Shown in pieces: positions 858-14,819 of a DNA stretch of 38,310 bases. The notes below the pieces were generated by a model. The model was not told the DNA's origin, did not search any database, and saw only the letters and a list, made by a program, of their open reading frames with translations. The position numbers were made by a program, and so were the translations under genes. Each line of letters opens with the position of its first letter. The stretch's first letter is position 1. Source of the stretch: a phage; sequence record PX946180.1. One strand, 5' to 3'.

Positions 858-953
858 AATAAGGCTCCTTTGGAGGTAGAGGCTAACTACACGCTGACCA
901 ACGCATGGTAACAACTTTGGGTCACGGACGACCCGCTTTAAACTGGAGGTTTT

Positions 954-1148
954 ATGATTGAGTTAGACTTCAAGAATGAGGTCCTTAAAGCCTCTCCTAT
1001 CGTCGGGACCGCTGCGGCTGATGGTGCCAGTCGGTTCTTCTTCGGACTTACACTGAACGAATGGTTCTACGTTGCAGCTATCGCGTACACCGTTGTCCAG
1101 ATTGGTGTGTTAGTCTACAAAACGATTAAAGGAGGTGGTAAAACATGA
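954..1148 (+). CDS. class II holin (T7 gp17.5-like)
   Basis: 64 aa, one hydrophobic segment, recalled similarity to T7 gp17.5 (IVGT..FFGL.LNEWFYVAAIAYTVVQIG); lies between tail fiber and small terminase as in T7. Confidence 0.85.
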   Translation: MIELDFKNEVLKASPIVGTAAADGASRFFFGLTLNEWFYVAAIAYTVVQIGVLVYKTIKGGGKT

Positions 1149-1408
1149 CGCAGATGGACTTAGAGAAGTTCCTCTTAATGCTAGATACTGAACGTGCTCG
1201 ACTCATGCTGCAAGACCTGCGGGATGACTCTAAGCGTTCACCTCAGCTTTACAACGCCATTGAGAAGCTACTGGCTCGTCACAACTTCGTGCTAAGCAAG
1301 GTGTCTGTTGACGAGAAGACGCTAGCTGATATGGAGGCCCTGAACGCAGAGTACGATAAGGTGCTCTCCGCTACGGAAGATAATGACACTGGATATGGAG
1401 TGCAGTAA
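1145..1408 (+). CDS. terminase small subunit (T7 gp18-like)
   Basis: 87 aa; RSPQLYNAIEKLL motif matches recalled T7 gp18; ATG overlaps holin stop; AGGAGG RBS upstream. Confidence 0.85.
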   Translation: MTQMDLEKFLLMLDTERARLMLQDLRDDSKRSPQLYNAIEKLLARHNFVLSKVSVDEKTLADMEALNAEYDKVLSATEDNDTGYGVQ

Positions 1409-1422
1409 ATCTCTTAAGTGTT

Positions 1423-1460
1423 AGACTCAAGGTCATCGTCAGGTGGCCTTTATGATTAAC
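1423..1460 (+). promoter_or_regulatory. R1.1-like RNase III processing element (R18.5 position)
   Basis: Motif AGACTCAAGGTCAT..GTGGCCTTTATGATTA, one of four copies (also 6468, 9884, 17126); GTGGCCTTTATGATT core matches my recollection of the T7 R1.1 site. Confidence 0.5.
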
Positions 1461-1509
1461 ACTACGCGAGGTGCGATCTCGTGAAATCTGAGAAACAAGG
1501 AGGGCAACT

Positions 1510-1947
1510 ATGCTCAAACTTTTACGACAGGCCGTCCCTTGGCTGGTGGCAGGACTCCTGTTCTGCTCAGGTTACTGGGTGGCAGACAATAAGTGGGAGG
1601 CAAAGGTAAACGATGAATACATCACGAAACTTAAGGCACGAGAGAATCAACGGGCTGCTGTCCAAGGTGAAATCGACAAAGTGTCAGCAGAGTGGCAAGA
1701 CAAGATGTCCGCGCTGGAAGGCTCTACTGATAGGATTATTGCTGACCTTCAGTCTGACAATAAGCGGCTGCGCATCCGAGTCAACACCTCAGGTCTCACC
1801 GAGTCGGATATCAGTCGATGCTTCCCTAATGGTAGAGTCGAACTACACCCAGAAACTTCTAAAAGTCTTATCCGAATAACTCAGGAGGCAGACCTTAAGG
1901 AGAAGGCTCTTCAGGACACAATAAGGAGGCTTCAAGGTGTTAAGTGA
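1510..1947 (+). CDS. i-spanin Rz (T7 gp18.5-like)
   Basis: 145 aa; N-terminal TM segment followed by a charged coiled-coil region; position after small terminase. Confidence 0.8.
   Translation: MLKLLRQAVPWLVAGLLFCSGYWVADNKWEAKVNDEYITKLKARENQRAAVQGEIDKVSAEWQDKMSALEGSTDRIIADLQSDNKRLRIRVNTSGLTESDISRCFPNGRVELHPETSKSLIRITQEADLKEKALQDTIRRLQGVK
1613..1879 (+). CDS. o-spanin Rz1 embedded in the +1 frame of Rz (true start uncertain, probably internal)
   Basis: Embedded ORF with lipobox-like LTISGC followed by Pro/Ser-rich tail, typical of Rz1 lipoproteins; the first ~35 residues of the tracked ORF are probably not translated. Confidence 0.55.
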   Translation: MNTSRNLRHERINGLLSKVKSTKCQQSGKTRCPRWKALLIGLLLTFSLTISGCASESTPQVSPSRISVDASLMVESNYTQKLLKVLSE

Positions 1948-2374
1948 TTACTACAAAGTGGACCAGGCGAGTCCATCCGGTCTGGTCTCCGTTAGGACTG
2001 GAAAGCCTGTGGGGACGTTAAGTCGGATGGGATATTGGATAGTACAGACACGAAGTCTAGGCAGTAAGCGGGCACATCGCGTGATATGGGAACTAACCAA
2101 TGGTCCTATACCACATGGTATGCAAATAGACCACATCGACAGGAATCCCAGCAATAATACCTTAAGTAACTTACGGCTCGTTACTGCCGCTGAGAACACT
2201 TGGAATACTGGTAGCCATTATGACTCTAAGACAGGAGTGAAGTGCGTTACCCGTCACCAGAATGGTTATAGGATTCAGGTTAAACGCGGTAATGTCTATA
2301 TGCGAACAACACGTCCTACTTTAGAGGAGGCTATCTCTGTCCGGGACCTAATGCTGGAGGGACTCTATGTCTAA
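1937..2374 (+). CDS. HNH homing endonuclease (HNH_3 motif plus AP2-like DNA-binding region)
   Basis: 145 aa; motif [37 protein letters not shown]; overlaps Rz stop and large terminase start; T7 has no gene here. Confidence 0.85.
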
Positions 2375-4133
2375 GAAAACACCTGTTGAAAGACAGGCAG
2401 AAATGACCCAAAGGATGAGGGACGATTTCGTGTTCTTCATCTTCGTTCTCTGGAAAGCTCTTAGCCTTCCGGTTCCAACCCGCTGCCAGATAGATATGTG
2501 TAAGAAGCTGGCTGCTGGGGATAATCGCCGCTTCATCCTTCAGGCGTTCCGTGGTATTGGCAAGTCGTTTCTGACCTGTGGTTTCGTGGTCTGGAAACTA
2601 TGGAACAACCCAGACTTGAAGTTCATGATTGTGTCGGCCTCAAAGGAACGAGCCGATGCGAACTCCATCTTCATCAAGAGAATCATCGACCTCATGCCTC
2701 AGCTTCAGGAACTCAAACCTAAGCAGGGACAGCGAGATGCGGTTATCAGCTTCGACGTTGGGCCAGCCAAGCCAGACCACTCACCTTCTGTTAAGTCCGT
2801 TGGTATCACTGGTCAGTTGACTGGTAGTCGTGCTGACATACTGATTGCAGATGACGTGGAGGTTCCTAATAACTCTGCGACTCAGGCTGCACGAGACCGT
2901 CTGTCAGAGCTTGTGAAAGAGTTCGACGCTATCCTGAAGCCGGGAGGTACAATCATCTATCTGGGTACGCCTCAGAACGAGATGACCCTGTATCGTGAGC
3001 TGGAGGGTCGCGGCTATACGACGACTATCTGGCCTGCACGTTACCCTCGAGATAAGAAGGACTGGCAGTCTTACGGCGACCGTCTGGCTCCTATGCTTCA
3101 GGCAGAGCTGGAAGAGGACCCTGAATCCTTCTACTGGCGTCCGACCGATGAGGTACGATTCGATGATACGGACCTGAAGGAACGTGAGCTGTCCTATGGT
3201 AAGGCTGGCTTCGCGCTACAGTTCATGCTTAACCCGAACCTGAGTGATGCTGAGAAGTACCCTCTGAAGCTCCGTGACCTTATCGTAGCCGACTTGGACC
3301 CAGCGTCCAGCCCAATGGTCTACCAATGGTTGCCAAACCCTCAGAACAAGCGTGAGGACGTTCCTAACGTTGGACTCATGGGTGACTCATACCACACGTA
3401 TCAGACTGTAGGTTCTGCCTTCAGTTCGTACACCCAGAAGATTCTGGTCATTGACCCTAGTGGTCGTGGTAAGGATGAAACTGGTTATGCGGTACTGTAT
3501 CAGCTAAACGGCTACATCTTCGCTATGGAAGTTGGTGGTATGCGTGGTGGTTATGAAGACTCTACGCTGGAAGCCTTGGCTAAGATTGGTCGTAAGTGGA
3601 AGGTCAACGAATACGTCATTGAGGGTAACTTCGGTGATGGTATGTACCTTGAGCTATTCAAGCCTGTAGCGGCACGTATCCATCCTGCTGCTGTAACTGA
3701 AGTGAAGAGTAAGGGTCAGAAAGAACTCCGCATCTGTGACGTTCTGGAGCCTATCATGGGGTCTCACCGACTTATCGTTAACGCTTCTGCTATCGTCCAA
3801 GACTACCAGACAGCCTCTGATAAGGACGGCGTTCGTAACCCTATCTACTCTCTCTTCTACCAGATGACACGTATCTCTCGTGAACGTGGAGCCTTGGCAC
3901 ATGATGACCGACTTGATGCTCTGGCTATAGGTGTACAGTTCTTCGTTGAGTCTATGGCTAAGGATGCCAACAAAGGCGAACGTGAAGTCACTGAGGAGTG
4001 GCTGGAGGAACAGATGGAGAACCCACGGAAAGGCTTCGAGTCCATCCACACTGAGTTCTGGGACAATGGTGTCCGGGTAACTCACGATACGGGCGATGAG
4101 CTTGGGCTAGGGTCATACGTTACGTTCCACTAG
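2367..4133 (+). CDS. terminase large subunit (T7 gp19-like)
   Basis: 588 aa, collinear with recalled T7 gp19 (586 aa); Walker A-like GIGKS and nuclease region present. Confidence 0.95.
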
Positions 4134-4227
4134 CTGAATGAATAACTATAGGTGAAAGCTGCATGAATACGCAGTTAGTAACCTATAGTTACTACCAGTC
4201 TAACCTACTGTTTTACAAGGAGTTTGG

Positions 4228-4250
4228 ACTTAACTATCACTATAGGGAAG
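4228..4250 (+). promoter_or_regulatory. phage RNAP promoter (phiOR-like), +1 G at 4245
   Basis: TTAACTATCACTATAGGGAAG matches the window consensus; sits between terminase and the genome-end region as T7 phiOR does. Confidence 0.7.
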
Positions 4251-4430
4251 ACCCCCGGTTACTTATAGTATTACTGTAGTGAATATACATATGCAGACTT
4301 TATGCAAGACCTTAGGAGGCAGACTCCGAGTTCTTACCTAAGGCTTGCACCGATGGAAGGAGGGTGATATTAATCATAATCCCTCCAATACAGATAGTCA
4401 CCGACCATAGATACAGGAGGTATGTAGCAT

Positions 4431-4589
4431 ATGGCAAAGACCAAAGCTGTACTCAAAGCTCTGGCGACCAATCGAGCTACATACAGGTTTCTTGCTGCTG
4501 TTCTACTTGCTTCTGGCGTTACTGCTGGAAGTCAGTGGGTCGGGTGGGTCGAGACTCTCGTATGTTCTCTGGTGTCTCAGTGTAATTAA
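4431..4589 (+). CDS. small hypothetical membrane protein (gene 19.5 position)
   Basis: 52-aa ORF with AGGAGG 10 nt upstream and a hydrophobic core; below the 60-aa tracker threshold; preferred over the overlapping tracker ORF 4364..4585. Confidence 0.4.
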   Translation: MAKTKAVLKALATNRATYRFLAAVLLASGVTAGSQWVGWVETLVCSLVSQCN

Positions 4590-4865
4590 TGCAATCATGG
4601 TAACGATTCATGAAAGGAGGTAATATGATTGGTTATGGCGAAGGATGAAGAGCTAAGGTCAGTACGTGGATAAAGACTCACTCTACTGACCTTAGCTACT
4701 GTAGTCAAGGACTTTAGGTAACACCCTTCAGGCTCTCACTTCTGGTCTACCTACTGATTGGTTCACTGGTCGTCATCCGATGGCATTAGACCTACGGTCC
4801 TTGACCTACAGTAGCTGGCTCCTAAGGAGGGACGATGAGTTTTGGACCAAAAGTTTGAGACCACA

Positions 4866-5090
4866 TCTCACAGTTCAAGAACCTCAAGTCTCCCCATAGG
4901 CCCTCTTTCAGTCCAGACCAAAGGCCCTACCCCTAGACCTTCGGTCTAAACTTCAGGTCATTGACTCAAGGTCTACCCTAAGTCATGACGATAGGTCAGG
5001 GCTATGGCTGGTGGTCAGGACGATAGGTAGGGACTATGGGTCTTCTTTGAGTCTCTATCTGTATCAGACCTTGAGTCACTACCTACAGTC
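4866..5090 (+). repeat. candidate terminal-repeat (DTR) region of the linear genome, collapsed to one copy in this assembly; right boundary approximate
   Basis: Starts with TCTCACAG as the T7 left end does, followed by T7-like elements CCCCATAGG, ACCTTCGGT, CCCTAAG and GTCTCTATCTGTATCAG; comparison is from memory of the T7 terminal repeat. Confidence 0.35.
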
Positions 5091-5165
5091 TAACTACCTA
5101 CAGTATAACTACCTACAGTCATCAACCATCGGTAATGCCGCTACCTACAGTCAGAGACCTACAGT
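5077..5165 (+). repeat. short tandem repeat array (A)CTACCTACAGT(C), five copies
   Basis: Direct copies at about 5077, 5091, 5105, 5140 and 5155; analogous to the CCTAAAG-type repeat arrays just inside T7 genome ends. Confidence 0.7.
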
Positions 5166-5269
5166 TAATAGACACAAAGGATATAGACTTAAGGTCTAAG
5201 ACATGTTAGTCAAAGACTATAGCCTCTTACACCATGGGGTCGACGATAGCTTAATCGATATTATTTCAA

Positions 5270-5450
5270 ATTACCTATTGACTATAGGTCTAGACTATGG
5301 CTTAATAGCTTCCGTCAACACGACACGGCAACAACCGGATAGTGAAGACGCCGGGTCATCCCGGTTAAGTAGACAGCCTGATAAGTCGTACGAACAACAG
5401 GCAGATGACAGAAAGTAGTTGACAAGCAGTGACGATACGATGTAAGCTGT
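5270..5450 (+). promoter_or_regulatory. early host-RNAP promoter region (candidate sigma70 promoters, A1-A3 equivalents)
   Basis: TTGACT at 5278-5283 with possible -10 CTTAAT after 17 nt; TTGACA at 5419-5424 followed by TACGATGTA.CCACAT resembling T7 A3; region 5350-5400 resembles recalled T7 sequence CCGGATAAGTAGACAGCCTGATAAGTCG; exact -10 elements are ambiguous. Confidence 0.45.
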
Positions 5451-5636
5451 ACCACATCGAAACAACGGTGAAGACCAACACTGAAACGGTCTACCTGAAG
5501 TCTTCTGACTGAAGGGAATGCTCTTTAACAATCTGGATAACTCTTAATGTGCGCCGATAGCGACTAACTACAGGGTCTTTGAGTCTACACCTGAAGGCCC
5601 TGACTGATAGTCACTAACAACTGAGAGGATATAACT

Positions 5637-6143
5637 ATGGAACGTAACGCTAACGCATACTATGACCTGCTGGCTGCAACCGTTAAAGCATTTAACGAAC
5701 GTATTCGGTCCGACGAAATAGCTGAAGGTGATGACTACCACGATGCGCTGCATGAAGTCGTAGACGGTCAGGTTCCGCTCTATTACCACGAGATTTTTAC
5801 GGTGATGGCTGCTGATGGCATAGACCACGAGTTCGAAGACTCTGGGCTGATGCCTGAGACCAAGGACGTAACGCGCATACTGCAAGCTCGCATCTATGAG
5901 GCACTGTATAACGACGTGTCTAATAGCTCGGATGTGGTCTGGTTTGAGGCTGAAGAGAGCGACGAAGGGGATAAGTATTGGGTAGTTGACGCTAAAACGG
6001 GACTATTCGTTGAGCAAGCTGTACCTCTTGAGGTCGCTATTGCATCTGCCAAAGACCTCTATGCGGTAGGTCATCACATGAAAGTCGAAGACATTAACGA
6101 TAACGTAGTGTTCGACCCTGCGGCTGAAGAGGACTGCGAGTGA
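5637..6143 (+). CDS. ocr: Ocr-like anti-restriction DNA mimic (gene 0.3) with extra ~65-aa C-terminal extension
   Basis: 168 aa; VPLYYHEIFTVMAADGIDHEFEDSGLMPETKDVTRILQARIYE closely matches recalled T7 Ocr core; first gene after the early promoter region. Confidence 0.85.
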   Translation: MERNANAYYDLLAATVKAFNERIRSDEIAEGDDYHDALHEVVDGQVPLYYHEIFTVMAADGIDHEFEDSGLMPETKDVTRILQARIYEALYNDVSNSSDVVWFEAEESDEGDKYWVVDAKTGLFVEQAVPLEVAIASAKDLYAVGHHMKVEDINDNVVFDPAAEEDCE

Positions 6144-7256: not shown

Positions 7257-9104
7257 ATGAGCGTCATCTCTATTGACAAACACGACTTCTCTGATGTGTC
7301 GAACGCCATTGAGCCGTTTAACCTGCTGGCTGACCACTACGGGCAAGACCTCGCAGTAAAGCAGCTTCAGCTTGAGCATGAGGCATACACTGAAGGCGAG
7401 CGACGTTTCATCAAGAACCTTGAGCGCCAGACTGAGCGCGGGGAACTGGCAGACAATCAGGTCGCCAAGCCTTTGATGCAGACTCTGGTCCCGACCATCG
7501 CTAAGGCTTTCCGTGAGTGGCATGAAGGCCCGGACGGTAAGTCCTCGACCTCTCGTCCAAGCGTAGCGTTCACCATGCTGAGCACTGACGAGAAGGCTGT
7601 CAAAGACCGCTCTCTGCTCATCTCTGCGGAGTCTGCTGCGGTCATCATACTGAAGGTCATTCTCAGCAAGCTGGTCAAGCCTGAAGGCATCCCGATAACT
7701 CCTATGGCGTCCGCGATAGGTCGAACACTGGAAGATGAAATCCGCTTTGGTCGCATCCGTGATCAGGAGAAGGAGCACTTCAAGAAGGCGATAGCTGAGA
7801 ACCTGAACAAGCGCGCAGGGGTATCCTACAAGAAAGCCTACATGCAAGCGGTTGAGACCTCCATGTTGGAGCAAGGCCAACTGGAAGATGCCTGGGGAAC
7901 TTGGAGTCCGACCGAGGCGGTCCATGTTGGCATCAAGATGCTTGAGATTGTCATCCAGTCTACTCAACTGGTAGAGCTTAAGCGTTATGGTGCTGGCAAT
8001 GCAGCGGCGGACGTTGAGATGGTCCACCTGTCAGACTTCTGGGTCAAGAAGATGGCTCAGCGTGGCTTCTCTCTTGCGGGAATCGCTCCAGTCTACCAGC
8101 CATGCGTAGTTCCGCCTAAGCCGTGGACCGGGGTGGTGGGTGGTGGGTACTGGGCTAAAGGCCGAAGACCACTACCACTGATTCGCTTAGGGTCTAAGTC
8201 TGCGGTGGCACGTTACGAAGATGTATACATGCCTGAAGTCTACGACGCTGTGAATATCATTCAGAATACACCTTGGAAAGTGAACAAGAAGGTTCTGAAC
8301 GTGGTGAACATGGTCGAGAAGCTGAACAACACGCCTATTGATGACATCCCTCAGATGGAACCGCTGAAGCCTGAGGACTATGCGGGTGAGACTGAAGAAG
8401 AACTTAAGGCATGGAAGAAAGCTGCTGCCGGTATCTATCGCCGCGAGAAGGCCCGACAGTCACGAAGATTGTCACTGAGCTTTATCGTTAACCAAGCGAA
8501 CAAGTTCTCTCAGTTCAAGGCTATCTGGTTCCCGTATAACATGGATTGGCGAGGTCGTGTCTACGCTGTCCCGATGTTCAACCCTCAGGGTAACGACATG
8601 CAAAAGGGACTCCTGACTCTGGCAGTCGGTAAGCCTATTGGTGCTGATGGTTTCAAATGGCTGAAGGTACGCAAGAAGGATACCACTCGTCTGAACCTGA
8701 TGTTCTTAGGGTCATTCAACCTTCAGCCTACAGTCAACAAAGGCGCGAAGAAAGAGCTTGACAAACACAAGCAGGAGTCAGGTATTAGCCCGAACTTCGT
8801 CCACTCACAAGATGGCAGTCACCTCCGCAAGACTGTAGTCCACACGCACCGCAAGTATGGCGTGATGTCGTTCGCAGTGATCCACGATAGCTTCGGGACC
8901 ATCCCGGCTGACGCTGAGTATCTGTTCCGTGGTGTCCGTGAGACGATGGTCGAGACCTACCGCGACAACGATGTGCTGCTTGACTTCTATGAGCAGTTTG
9001 AATACCAGCTTCATGAGAGCCAGCGCGACAAGCTGCCAGAGCTTCCGAAGAAAGGTGAACTGAATATCGAAGACATCCTGTCTTCAGACTTTGCATTCGC
9101 TTAA
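7257..9104 (+). CDS. T7-like single-subunit RNA polymerase with ~268-codon internal in-frame deletion (catalytic motifs A and B missing; probably non-functional)
   Basis: 615 aa versus 883 aa for T7 RNAP; N-terminal ~464 aa and C-terminal ~151 aa are collinear with T7 (promoter-binding domain, specificity loop, HKQESG..FVHSQDGSHLRK, IHDSFGT, terminal FAFA); junction GFKWLK/VRKKDTTRLNLMFLG at about 8664-8669; no DGSCSG or TLAYGS motif anywhere in the ORF. Confidence 0.85.
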   Translation: MSVISIDKHDFSDVSNAIEPFNLLADHYGQDLAVKQLQLEHEAYTEGERRFIKNLERQTERGELADNQVAKPLMQTLVPTIAKAFREWHEGPDGKSSTSRPSVAFTMLSTDEKAVKDRSLLISAESAAVIILKVILSKLVKPEGIPITPMASAIGRTLEDEIRFGRIRDQEKEHFKKAIAENLNKRAGVSYKKAYMQAVETSMLEQGQLEDAWGTWSPTEAVHVGIKMLEIVIQSTQLVELKRYGAGNAAADVEMVHLSDFWVKKMAQRGFSLAGIAPVYQPCVVPPKPWTGVVGGGYWAKGRRPLPLIRLGSKSAVARYEDVYMPEVYDAVNIIQNTPWKVNKKVLNVVNMVEKLNNTPIDDIPQMEPLKPEDYAGETEEELKAWKKAAAGIYRREKARQSRRLSLSFIVNQANKFSQFKAIWFPYNMDWRGRVYAVPMFNPQGNDMQKGLLTLAVGKPIGADGFKWLKVRKKDTTRLNLMFLGSFNLQPTVNKGAKKELDKHKQESGISPNFVHSQDGSHLRKTVVHTHRKYGVMSFAVIHDSFGTIPADAEYLFRGVRETMVETYRDNDVLLDFYEQFEYQLHESQRDKLPELPKKGELNIEDILSSDFAFA

Positions 9105-13427: not shown

Positions 13428-13880
13428 GTGGCTGCATGGACACAAAAACGGGGGCACTCTGTGGGTGCCTACCGCTCTGGACTTGAGGCCAAGAACCAGC
13501 AGTGGCTGGAGCAGAATGGCGTCAAAGCGGAGTACGAAAGCCATTATATCAACTATGTGATTCCGGCTTCCGACCACAAGTACACACCAGACTTCATCCT
13601 TCCGAACGGAATCATCGTCGAGACCAAAGGTATCTTCGACAGTGAGGACCGTAAGAAGCACCTTCTGGTACGAGAACAGCACCCAGAGTTAGACATCCGG
13701 TTCGTGTTCTCAAGTTCCCGCTCCAAGCTATACAAAGGGTCTCCGACCACGTATGGCGCATGGTGCGAAAAGAACGGATTTAAGTTTGCCGACAAGTTCA
13801 TCCCGGTTGAGTGGCTGCGAGAGGCGACTGTACGTCTGCCTTCAGGCATACTCATTCCAAAGAAGAAAGGAGTTAAGTAA
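13428..13880 (+). CDS. endonuclease I, Holliday junction resolvase (T7 gp3-like)
   Basis: 150 aa; YVIPAS.H.YTPDF.LPNGI.VETKG...DRKKHLL.REQHPELDIR.VFSSSR.KLYKGSPT.YG matches recalled T7 gp3. Confidence 0.95.
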   Translation: MAAWTQKRGHSVGAYRSGLEAKNQQWLEQNGVKAEYESHYINYVIPASDHKYTPDFILPNGIIVETKGIFDSEDRKKHLLVREQHPELDIRFVFSSSRSKLYKGSPTTYGAWCEKNGFKFADKFIPVEWLREATVRLPSGILIPKKKGVK

Positions 13881-14371
13881 TGAGCAAGAAGTTTAAACTG
13901 TCAGTAAATACGTGTGGCTGGCCTCGTGGGACCATCGTTACCAAGTGTGAGAAGGATCCCAGCCCATATCCGCACATGACCCTAGTTGAGTGCCACACTC
14001 CAGGCACCTACAAAAACGGGTCTAACGGCCACAATACTCAGCCTGATGGTATGTGGGGAGCATGGGTCTATGATCATGAACTTGAGGAAATAAAGCAGGA
14101 AGAGAAACTCACTGGTGTACAGACCACTCAGGTCCTGCCAGCCTCAAGCGTCCCTCCTGTCACCGTTAAACGCGAAGTCCTGACCATCGACAAGATTGGT
14201 GTAGGACAAACGTTCATCGTCCATGGTAAACCTGAGGAAGTTTACGTGAAGATTAGCAACTCACACGTCTTCAACCATAAGCGTCTCCAGATGCACACCA
14301 CGGATGCACAGCGCTTCACCCAGCACCTGAATCTGGTGGTAGTAGAATTGGTGGTGTACAATGGTAAGTAA
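13880..14371 (+). CDS. hypothetical protein (163 aa) inserted between endonuclease I and lysozyme
   Basis: Tracker ORF; start overlaps gp3 stop; no T7 counterpart at this position and no recognised domain. Confidence 0.6.
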   Translation: MSKKFKLSVNTCGWPRGTIVTKCEKDPSPYPHMTLVECHTPGTYKNGSNGHNTQPDGMWGAWVYDHELEEIKQEEKLTGVQTTQVLPASSVPPVTVKREVLTIDKIGVGQTFIVHGKPEEVYVKISNSHVFNHKRLQMHTTDAQRFTQHLNLVVVELVVYNGK

Positions 14372-14819
14372 GGTACAGTTCAACCCACGGTCCCGGACTG
14401 ACGCTATCTTCGTTCACTGTTCGGCTACCAAGCCAGAGATGGACATCGGGGTAGAGACCATCCGTATGTGGCACAAGCAGCAAGGCTGGCTGGACGTAGG
14501 CTACCACTTTATCATCAAGCGCGATGGTACTGTTGAAGAGGGTCGCCCTGTCAACGTAGTAGGGTCACACGTTAAGGACTGGAACTCACGGTCTGTAGGC
14601 GTCTGCCTTGTAGGTGGAATTGATGCTAAGGGTAAGTTTGAAGCTAACTTCACTCCGGCCCAGATGGACTCCCTGCGCAACAAGCTGGCTGACCTGAAGG
14701 TCCTGTATCCTCAGGCAGAAATCAAAGCACACCATGACGTAGCACCGAAGGCGTGTCCAAGTTTTGACTTGCAACGCTGGCTATCTACCAACGAACTGAG
14801 GACTTCCGACCATGGATAA
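14361..14819 (+). CDS. lysozyme / N-acetylmuramoyl-L-alanine amidase (T7 gp3.5-like)
   Basis: 152 aa; TDAIFVHCSATKP, WLDVGYHFIIKRDGTVE.GR, GVCLVGGID.KGKF.ANFTPAQM and HH.VAPKACPSFDL match recalled T7 lysozyme. Confidence 0.95.
   Translation: MVSKVQFNPRSRTDAIFVHCSATKPEMDIGVETIRMWHKQQGWLDVGYHFIIKRDGTVEEGRPVNVVGSHVKDWNSRSVGVCLVGGIDAKGKFEANFTPAQMDSLRNKLADLKVLYPQAEIKAHHDVAPKACPSFDLQRWLSTNELRTSDHG

Follow-up and report, generated by a model that had tools for sequence, protein, structure and literature searches.

Results and discussion

The HNH gene at the junction of Rz and the large terminase gene

The window, by which we mean the whole stretch of phage DNA analysed here (38,310 nucleotides, sequence record PX946180.1), is a Kayfunavirus sequence, K1F-like and of the T7 group, with best matches about 94-95% identical over positions 870-5000. 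The genes around the junction between Rz and the large terminase gene (TerL) are as follows.

954-1148: holin
1145-1408: small terminase subunit gp18
1510-1947, + strand: Rz i-spanin gene, upstream neighbour (phrog_1327, E 9e-54)
1613-1879: Rz1, embedded in Rz
1937-2374, + strand: HNH_3 endonuclease gene, 145 aa with a GTG start (ORF, Pfam and PHROG matches)
2356-2374, + strand: translation start of TerL, which the insert provides with its 3' end; kept in every deletion scar
2367-4133, + strand: TerL, T7 gp19 type, downstream neighbour (PF22530, E 6e-38)

A 145-aa HNH_3 ORF at 1937-2374, overlapping the Rz stop and the start of TerL, had been proposed in the first-pass annotation of this DNA, and the ORF, Pfam and PHROG analyses bore this out. 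The HNH protein matched Pfam HNH_3 (PF13392) with 74.1 bits (E 6.7e-21), the curated cut-off being 24.8 bits, and matched phrog_99 'HNH endonuclease' over residues 6-144 (E 4.8e-40). The ORF shares 11 nt with the end of the Rz ORF and 8 nt with the start of TerL, the latter in the sequence ATGTCTAA. A Shine-Dalgarno (SD) sequence, AAGGAGG, is present at 1923-1929 (+ strand) within the final Rz codons, 7 nt 5' of the HNH GTG. At the other end, a second SD sequence, GGAGGG (2356-2361), precedes the TerL ATG (2367-2369), and the HNH stop codon TAA lies at 2372-2374. Co-expression of the HNH gene with TerL, as had been suggested earlier, is plausible. The absence of any gene at the corresponding T7 junction, also claimed earlier, was confirmed in NC_001604, where the 21-nt gap between the end of Rz (37348) and the start of gene 19 (37370) carries no annotation.

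The HNH gene is free-standing, with its own SD sequence and GTG start between Rz and TerL, outside any intron or intein. An Rfam search of the whole window matched no family, and therefore no group I intron is indicated. The HNH gene itself was the sole match, with no paralogue, when the HNH protein was used in tblastn against the window, and the second gene of phage CR44b, '3.8B', had no counterpart in the window. A promoter and terminator scan of positions 900-4700 gave counts at or below shuffle expectation. RNA was folded across both junctions (1890-1990 and 2300-2420) to check if the ribosome binding site of TerL or of the HNH gene was hidden in a hairpin that could be opened by upstream translation. 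The energies were no better than those of shuffled sequences (z -0.57 and -0.32); a structural switch is therefore unsupported and no claim is made for one.

Catalytic core and predicted fold of the HNH protein

The closest solved structure by sequence was I-HmuI of phage SPO1 (1U3E), with only 22% identity to the HNH protein. In the phmmer alignment, residues D65, H66, N78 and N87 corresponded to positions 74, 75, 87 and 96 of 1U3E, and we take the active-site residues of I-HmuI to be Asp74, His75 and Asn96. An alignment of 27 homologues revealed invariant columns at H47, D65, H66, L79, R80, N87 and N90. The HNH catalytic residues are intact in the alignment with I-HmuI, and their loss, which had been weighed earlier, was not borne out. 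The corresponding features are given below.

2120-2206, + strand: beta-beta-alpha-metal catalytic core, residues 62-90 (phmmer alignment, conservation and model)
2129-2131, + strand: catalytic codon D65
2132-2134, + strand: catalytic codon H66
2168-2170, + strand: catalytic codon N78
2195-2197, + strand: catalytic codon N87
2234-2356, + strand: predicted C-terminal AP2-like DNA-binding domain, residues about 100-140 (sheet plus helix)

An AlphaFold2 model of the HNH protein, built on the 27-homologue alignment, had a mean pLDDT of 90.5 and comprised three parts, namely N-terminal strands, the beta-beta-alpha core (strands 62-66 and 79-83, helix 84-89) and a C-terminal three-stranded sheet with a helix (residues 104-140). 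In more distant homologues, the segment aligned with residues 100-140 matched Pfam AP2. The HNH protein itself gave no match to the Pfam AP2 model or to NCBIfam, and since a direct AP2 match is lacking, the AP2 assignment rests on the fold and on the aligned homologues. The fold is predicted to be that of an I-HmuI-like nuclease with a C-terminal AP2-like domain. I-HmuI differs in being encoded in a group I intron and in having a helical, helix-turn-helix C-terminal domain, whereas the gene in the window is free-standing and its C-terminal domain is predicted to be AP2-like.

The packaging HNH proteins of the HK97 gp74 type are likewise HNH-superfamily nucleases encoded beside terminase genes. 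In a fold comparison, with GVE2 5H0O and Gme 4H9D as structural examples of the gp74 type, the HNH protein resembled I-HmuI overall and a gp74-like fold was not matched. Nor is the HNH protein of the PF01844 type expected of a gp74-type packaging cofactor.

Distribution of two HNH alleles among related phages

We examined 258 phage records matching the Rz-TerL region. The HNH allele of the window (allele A) was present at exactly the same site, at 95-98% nucleotide identity, in 14 of the 258, namely CR44b (two records), seven Salmonella phages, TH16, vB_EcoP-101118UKE1, two unannotated Kayfunavirus assemblies and Hafnia phage yong1. All of the allele-A carriers are Kayfunavirus, and their isolation hosts include Citrobacter, Salmonella, Escherichia and Hafnia. 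A second allele (allele B), with about 66% protein and about 73% DNA identity to allele A, occupied the same site in about 40 records, including those of CR8 (Caroctavirus) and PRF-SP1 (Kayfunavirus). The remaining records (about 200 of the 258) had neither allele and carried either nothing or other cargo. Because of this patchy occurrence, the HNH gene is not a core gene, and its earlier description as a mobile insert, not a gene common to the whole clade, stands. Two of the records that matched the Kayfunavirus region are labelled 'Staphylococcus phage MBBL139' (OR786095.1), with allele-B HNH included in the match, and 'Enterococcus phage EFA-1' (MT350292.1); mislabelled hosts or contaminated samples are the probable cause.

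The last 75 nt of the HNH gene (2300-2374, + strand) were near-identical between allele A and the allele B of CR8 and PRF-SP1, whereas the gene body was only about 66-72% identical, which marks a recombination or homogenisation boundary inside the HNH gene. Homologues at 49-56% identity were found on metagenomic T7-like contigs, in which TerL had about 65-70% DNA identity. These homologues too lie directly 5' of TerL, with the stop codon overlapping the ATG and an SD sequence in the last codons. On one such contig a second HNH_3 gene (174 aa, 5201-5725) lies directly 3' of TerL, which is thus bracketed by two HNH genes. More distant HNH_3 members in other T7-like phages adjoin the ligase gene or occupy the T7 3.8 position. 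T7 gene 3.8 and other such genes of the Autographiviridae belong to the same Pfam family, with about 36% identity over residues 7-105, and are likewise small, free-standing and patchy in T7-like genomes. Their locus differs, being between genes 3.5 and 4 in T7 and by the ligase gene in others, and their target specificity is presumably different from that of the HNH protein described here. The clade of the latter is specifically tied to the start of TerL, which fits a target site there and would also fit a functional link to TerL.

Pairwise comparison of five allele-A HNH copies gave 7-17 synonymous and 2-9 non-synonymous changes, and dN/dS values of 0.05-0.17. The allele-A HNH gene is under purifying selection, and these dN/dS values show that the ORF is genuine and did not arise by chance.

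Previously described copies of the gene

The HNH gene at the Rz/TerL junction, its overlaps and its spontaneous loss are already known, having been annotated and published (CR44b; PMC8861465). Gene 3.8A of CR44b (YP_009007189), annotated in its record as 'predicted homing endonuclease', is the same gene at the same site, with 98.6% amino acid identity by blastp and 97% nucleotide identity. It has the same overlap of its GTG with the Rz stop and of its TAA with the TerL ATG, and its product differs by two residues (R106H and E130D in CR44b). ORF48 of Hafnia phage Ca (GenBank vB_HpaA_yong1, MK610268.1) is also the gene of the window, at the same site (PMC8861465). The ORF has been described as 143 aa long and 97% identical to the CR44b protein, with GTG/TGA and ATG/TAA overlaps, and a spontaneous 397-bp deletion of the HNH gene was reported, the complete genome making up >98% in large plaques and the deleted genome >98% in small plaques (PMC8861465). 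The authors speculated on effects on terminase or lysin expression and cited the precedent of HK97 gp74 (PMC8861465). In the yong1 record, TGGA is the only repeat at a spacing of 397 nt and is a candidate for the deletion junction. The same record has an extra T at about 470-480 (CCGTTTAGG vs CCGTTAGG), which frameshifts the HNH gene, and hence only a 45-aa 'homing endonuclease' is annotated there.

Empty sites, deletion scars and other cargo at the junction

The states of the junction were compared in 15 relatives. In the first type of empty site (K1F and ST31), the TGA of Rz overlaps a TTG start of TerL. In the second (Milel, pO2 and GA2A), the TAA of Rz overlaps a GTG start of TerL, AAGGAGGTTGCGTGGCGAATAAGAAAACACC; here no trace of HNH was found, and the 5' sequence of TerL is that of the window. 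The occupied states carry allele A (the window, CR44b and others) or allele B (CR8, PRF-SP1 and others). Comparison with the relatives without the gene (K1F, ST31, Milel, pO2 and GA2A), which the first-pass annotation had recommended for defining the insertion boundaries, placed the insert between the Rz stop and the TerL start. The insert thus lies between two genes that overlap stop-to-start in the empty-site relatives, and a stop/start overlap is kept at both of its ends. The AAGGAGG in the last Rz codons, which serves the TerL GTG at the Milel/pO2 empty site, serves the HNH GTG in the window. With its 3' end the insert contributes a new GGAGGG and ATG, so that TerL starts with MSKK... instead of M(V)ANKK....

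Two types of deletion scar were seen. KM02, Penshu1 and R1 keep the first ~27 and the last ~31 nt of the HNH ORF, joined at GTGGACC|TAATG; R1 has the same junction with a 3-nt insertion. Ro45lw keeps the first ~19 and the last ~57 nt, joined at CTAC. The short repeats at these junctions are present in the intact gene of the window.

1960-1964, + strand: GGACC direct repeat, 5 nt, left copy
2344-2348, + strand: GGACC direct repeat, right copy (KM02-type microhomology)
1951-1954, + strand: CTAC short repeat of the Ro45lw junction, left copy (right copy at 2316-2319)

Removal of the 384 nt between the GGACC copies gives the exact KM02/Penshu1 junction and is in frame. In Ro45lw, as we read the sequence, a 365-nt out-of-frame deletion was accompanied by a 1-nt deletion that restores the same stop. 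The 3' remnant of Ro45lw encodes part of the conserved C-terminal helix and is therefore HNH-derived, not a site that was never occupied. The KM02-type and Ro45lw scars are two independent losses. Every scar genome keeps, on our reading, a mini-ORF between the GTG of the HNH gene and the TAA that overlaps the start codon of TerL, and the four scar phages (KM02, Penshu1, R1 and Ro45lw) are isolated, plaque-forming phages.

Such losses bear on whether the ORF could be what is left of an old insertion, inactive and decaying. Deletions, both spontaneous and natural, occur often, as the scars and the Hafnia phage indicate (PMC8861465), and the deposited yong1 record has its 1-nt frameshift. However, the ORF is full-length with its catalytic residues intact, and synonymous changes (7-17) outnumber non-synonymous ones (2-9) in pairs of allele-A copies; we consider decay extremely improbable.

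Other cargo was also found at the junction. phiYIO1-1 carries a third HNH_3 gene with 36% identity (1249-1632 of the junction sequence), Baskent_phicoli_1 a conserved 56-aa ORF (1249-1419 of the junction sequence), and Bas105 a 140-aa ORF of no recognisable family together with a 56-aa ORF (1002-1607 of the junction sequence). To judge from these sequences, cargo of various kinds settles at the Rz/TerL junction in Kayfunavirus, which makes it a general hotspot. Between gp18 and Rz, phiYIO1-1 has a further small gene for a putative endonuclease (520-795).

A signature of lateral transfer and the 5' tract of TerL

Allele B provided a clear signature of lateral transfer. Between PRF-SP1 and CR8, which belong to different genera, Rz is 63% identical, whereas the HNH gene is 98% and nt 1-200 of TerL are 98-99% identical; beyond this, TerL identity falls to 89% over nt 200-300 and then to 76-91%. 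Allele B thus appears to have moved together with the adjoining flank of TerL.

The window itself has a sharply bounded tract at the start of TerL.

2367-2583, + strand: 5' tract of TerL (about codons 1-72), whose end lies just past the Walker-A GIGKS codons

Compared with the K1F/ST31 type, the first ~200-217 nt of TerL in the window are about 60-78% identical and the sequence thereafter is 94-100% identical; the last 200 nt of Rz are 52-65% identical. The differences within the tract are dense, mostly synonymous, and stop abruptly at about 2583. Compared with CR44b, the differences lie mainly in the 5' half of Rz. The tract is common to alleles A and B, to the scar genomes and, from about codon 20, to phiYIO1-1. 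Allele A thus has mosaic flanks and a common TerL 5' tract that is also found without HNH, and its transfer signature is weaker than that of allele B. We had considered the divergence of the TerL 5' end from K1F as proof of co-conversion with HNH; this view was weakened since the Milel/pO2 types share the tract without having the gene. As the type-2 empty sites have it, the tract is an older junction allele and was not necessarily made by the endonuclease.

The allele-B data also bear on a role of the nuclease as a weapon against competing phages, host DNA or plasmids, for instance through exclusion of markers from co-infecting relatives, in which the gene would not be copied into the target. 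The gene is intact, under purifying selection and located among late-transcribed genes, and with its match to the I-HmuI-like fold it could be a nicking enzyme able to harm a competitor without efficient homing. Relatives of the I-HmuI class cut one strand of the DNA instead of breaking both. However, the allele-B cassette and its TerL flank reach 98-99% identity across two genera in which Rz reaches 63%, which shows that the gene itself moves along with this flank, and exclusion and homing are not mutually exclusive. Competition without homing is thus, in our estimate, very unlikely.

A probable free-standing homing endonuclease at the start of TerL

The T-even seg and mob genes encode free-standing homing endonucleases that engage in 'intronless homing'; they lie between conserved genes, are patchy in occurrence, and their flanks move with them (co-conversion). 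The seg/mob enzymes are mostly GIY-YIG or belong to other HNH subfamilies, and their cleavage sites have been mapped experimentally. The HNH locus of the window is like them in being inserted between conserved genes, in its patchiness and, for allele B, in flanking sequence that appears to have moved with it. We consider it likely that the ORF is a free-standing homing endonuclease with an I-HmuI-like HNH and an AP2-like domain, specific for the Rz/TerL junction. The comparisons show an intact gene, its family and fold, a patchy occurrence at one fixed site, empty sites, deletion scars and a transfer signature for allele B; enzymatic activity, target position, the mode of cutting (nick or double-strand break) and the homing event itself are inferred.

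Homing would take place when a phage carrying the HNH gene and a relative lacking it infect the same cell. The enzyme would then nick or cut the genome without the gene, at its Rz/TerL junction or within the initial ~220 nt of its TerL, and repair on the HNH-carrying template would bring in the HNH gene and about 200 nt from the 5' end of TerL. The carrier genome would be spared either through interruption of the site by the insert or through the difference in its own TerL 5' sequence. Insertion would preserve translational coupling through the chain of overlaps from Rz to HNH to TerL.

Coupling of this kind raises the question of whether the HNH gene, or its translated segment, has been co-opted for TerL, be it as a translational coupler or as a nuclease partner in concatemer processing. 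We regard such co-option as unlikely, even though several observations would suit it: the stop/ATG overlap with TerL is kept even in the 49-56% homologues of divergent contigs, the last 75 nt of the ORF are almost invariant between alleles A and B, all scars keep the mini-ORF (in frame in KM02, with the stop restored in Ro45lw), dN/dS is 0.05-0.17, and the deleted genome of the Hafnia phage predominates in small plaques (PMC8861465). However, K1F, ST31, T7 and about 200 related records are without the gene here, the scar phages were isolated as plaque formers, and RNA folding at both junctions resembled that of shuffled sequences (z -0.3 and -0.6). Two or three in-frame scars are also too few to be set against chance, which is about 1 in 3 per event. 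Further, TerL here is of the T7 type (PF22530) and not of the Terminase_1 family, to which Kala et al. 2014 linked HNH cofactors, according to PMC8861465. Nor is the HNH protein an indispensable terminase partner across this group of phages, being absent in T7, K1F, ST31 and about 200 records and deleted in KM02, Penshu1, R1 and Ro45lw. The view of the protein as a packaging cofactor of the gp74 type is therefore weak, given the wrong HNH subfamily and fold, the wrong terminase type, its absence from most relatives and its deletion in isolated phages.

A further proposal, which we find doubtful, is that TerL expression has come to depend on translation through the mobile HNH element, so that the mini-ORF would be kept by selection after loss of the gene. 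This would account for the near-invariance of the last 75 nt, for scars that are in frame or have the frame restored, and for the small-plaque deletion variant of the Hafnia phage. With a sample of two or three events, retention of the mini-ORF in the scars is treated as a lead.

Of the two roles left open in the first-pass annotation, homing is favoured over a packaging cofactor because of the fold, the transfer signature of allele B and the deletion scars in isolated phages. Other observations weigh against homing. The fixed place by TerL in distant phages and the purifying selection would equally fit beneficial vertical inheritance, and the plaque data of Hafnia phage Ca suggest that losing the segment has a cost.

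The finding of the gene alone matters little, as it is a 98.6%-identical orthologue of an annotated 'homing endonuclease'. What we add are the two kinds of empty site, the two independent microhomology scars, the cross-genus identity of allele B and the distant homologues that abut TerL. The junction combines both empty-site types, a pair of diverged alleles, a third, more distant HNH gene, independent scars and a sharp TerL boundary by the Walker-A codons. It offers a convenient natural setting in which to study how a free-standing homing endonuclease is gained, replaced by another allele and lost in T7-like phages. The comparison also gives a concrete region in which to search for the site of cleavage, which may fall across the insertion point or, in the K1F-type allele, at the equivalent of 2540-2585 over the Walker-A codons. 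A point of use in phage engineering is that cargo is tolerated between Rz and TerL as long as the translational overlaps are kept.

Other features of the window

The phage RNA polymerase gene (7257-9104) has 615 codons as compared to 893 in relatives. An in-frame block of about 834 nt, equivalent to residues ~471-749 of the ST31 polymerase, is absent after 8668. The missing block holds much of the catalytic domain, and Pfam RNA_pol matches profile positions 284-376 only. The extra polymerase DNA was covered in all 12 of the 12 relatives listed. The short gene could be an artefact of assembly, or the phage may have been engineered or its genome be defective through deletion. Relatives exceed the window in length by 1-2 kb.

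Short direct-repeat arrays, with four copies of ACTACCTACAGTCTA at 5078-5154 and 23-26-nt repeats at 4790-5300, lie between gene 19.5 and the early region (ocr gene, 5637-6143). Since T7-like genomes have their terminal repeat or concatemer junction at this place, the window looks like a circularly permuted whole genome. Finally, a 163-aa ORF (13880-14371), which had no Pfam match, lies between the genes for endonuclease I (13428-13880) and amidase/lysozyme (14361-14819) and overlaps both neighbours by a few bases, in which it resembles an inserted accessory gene.
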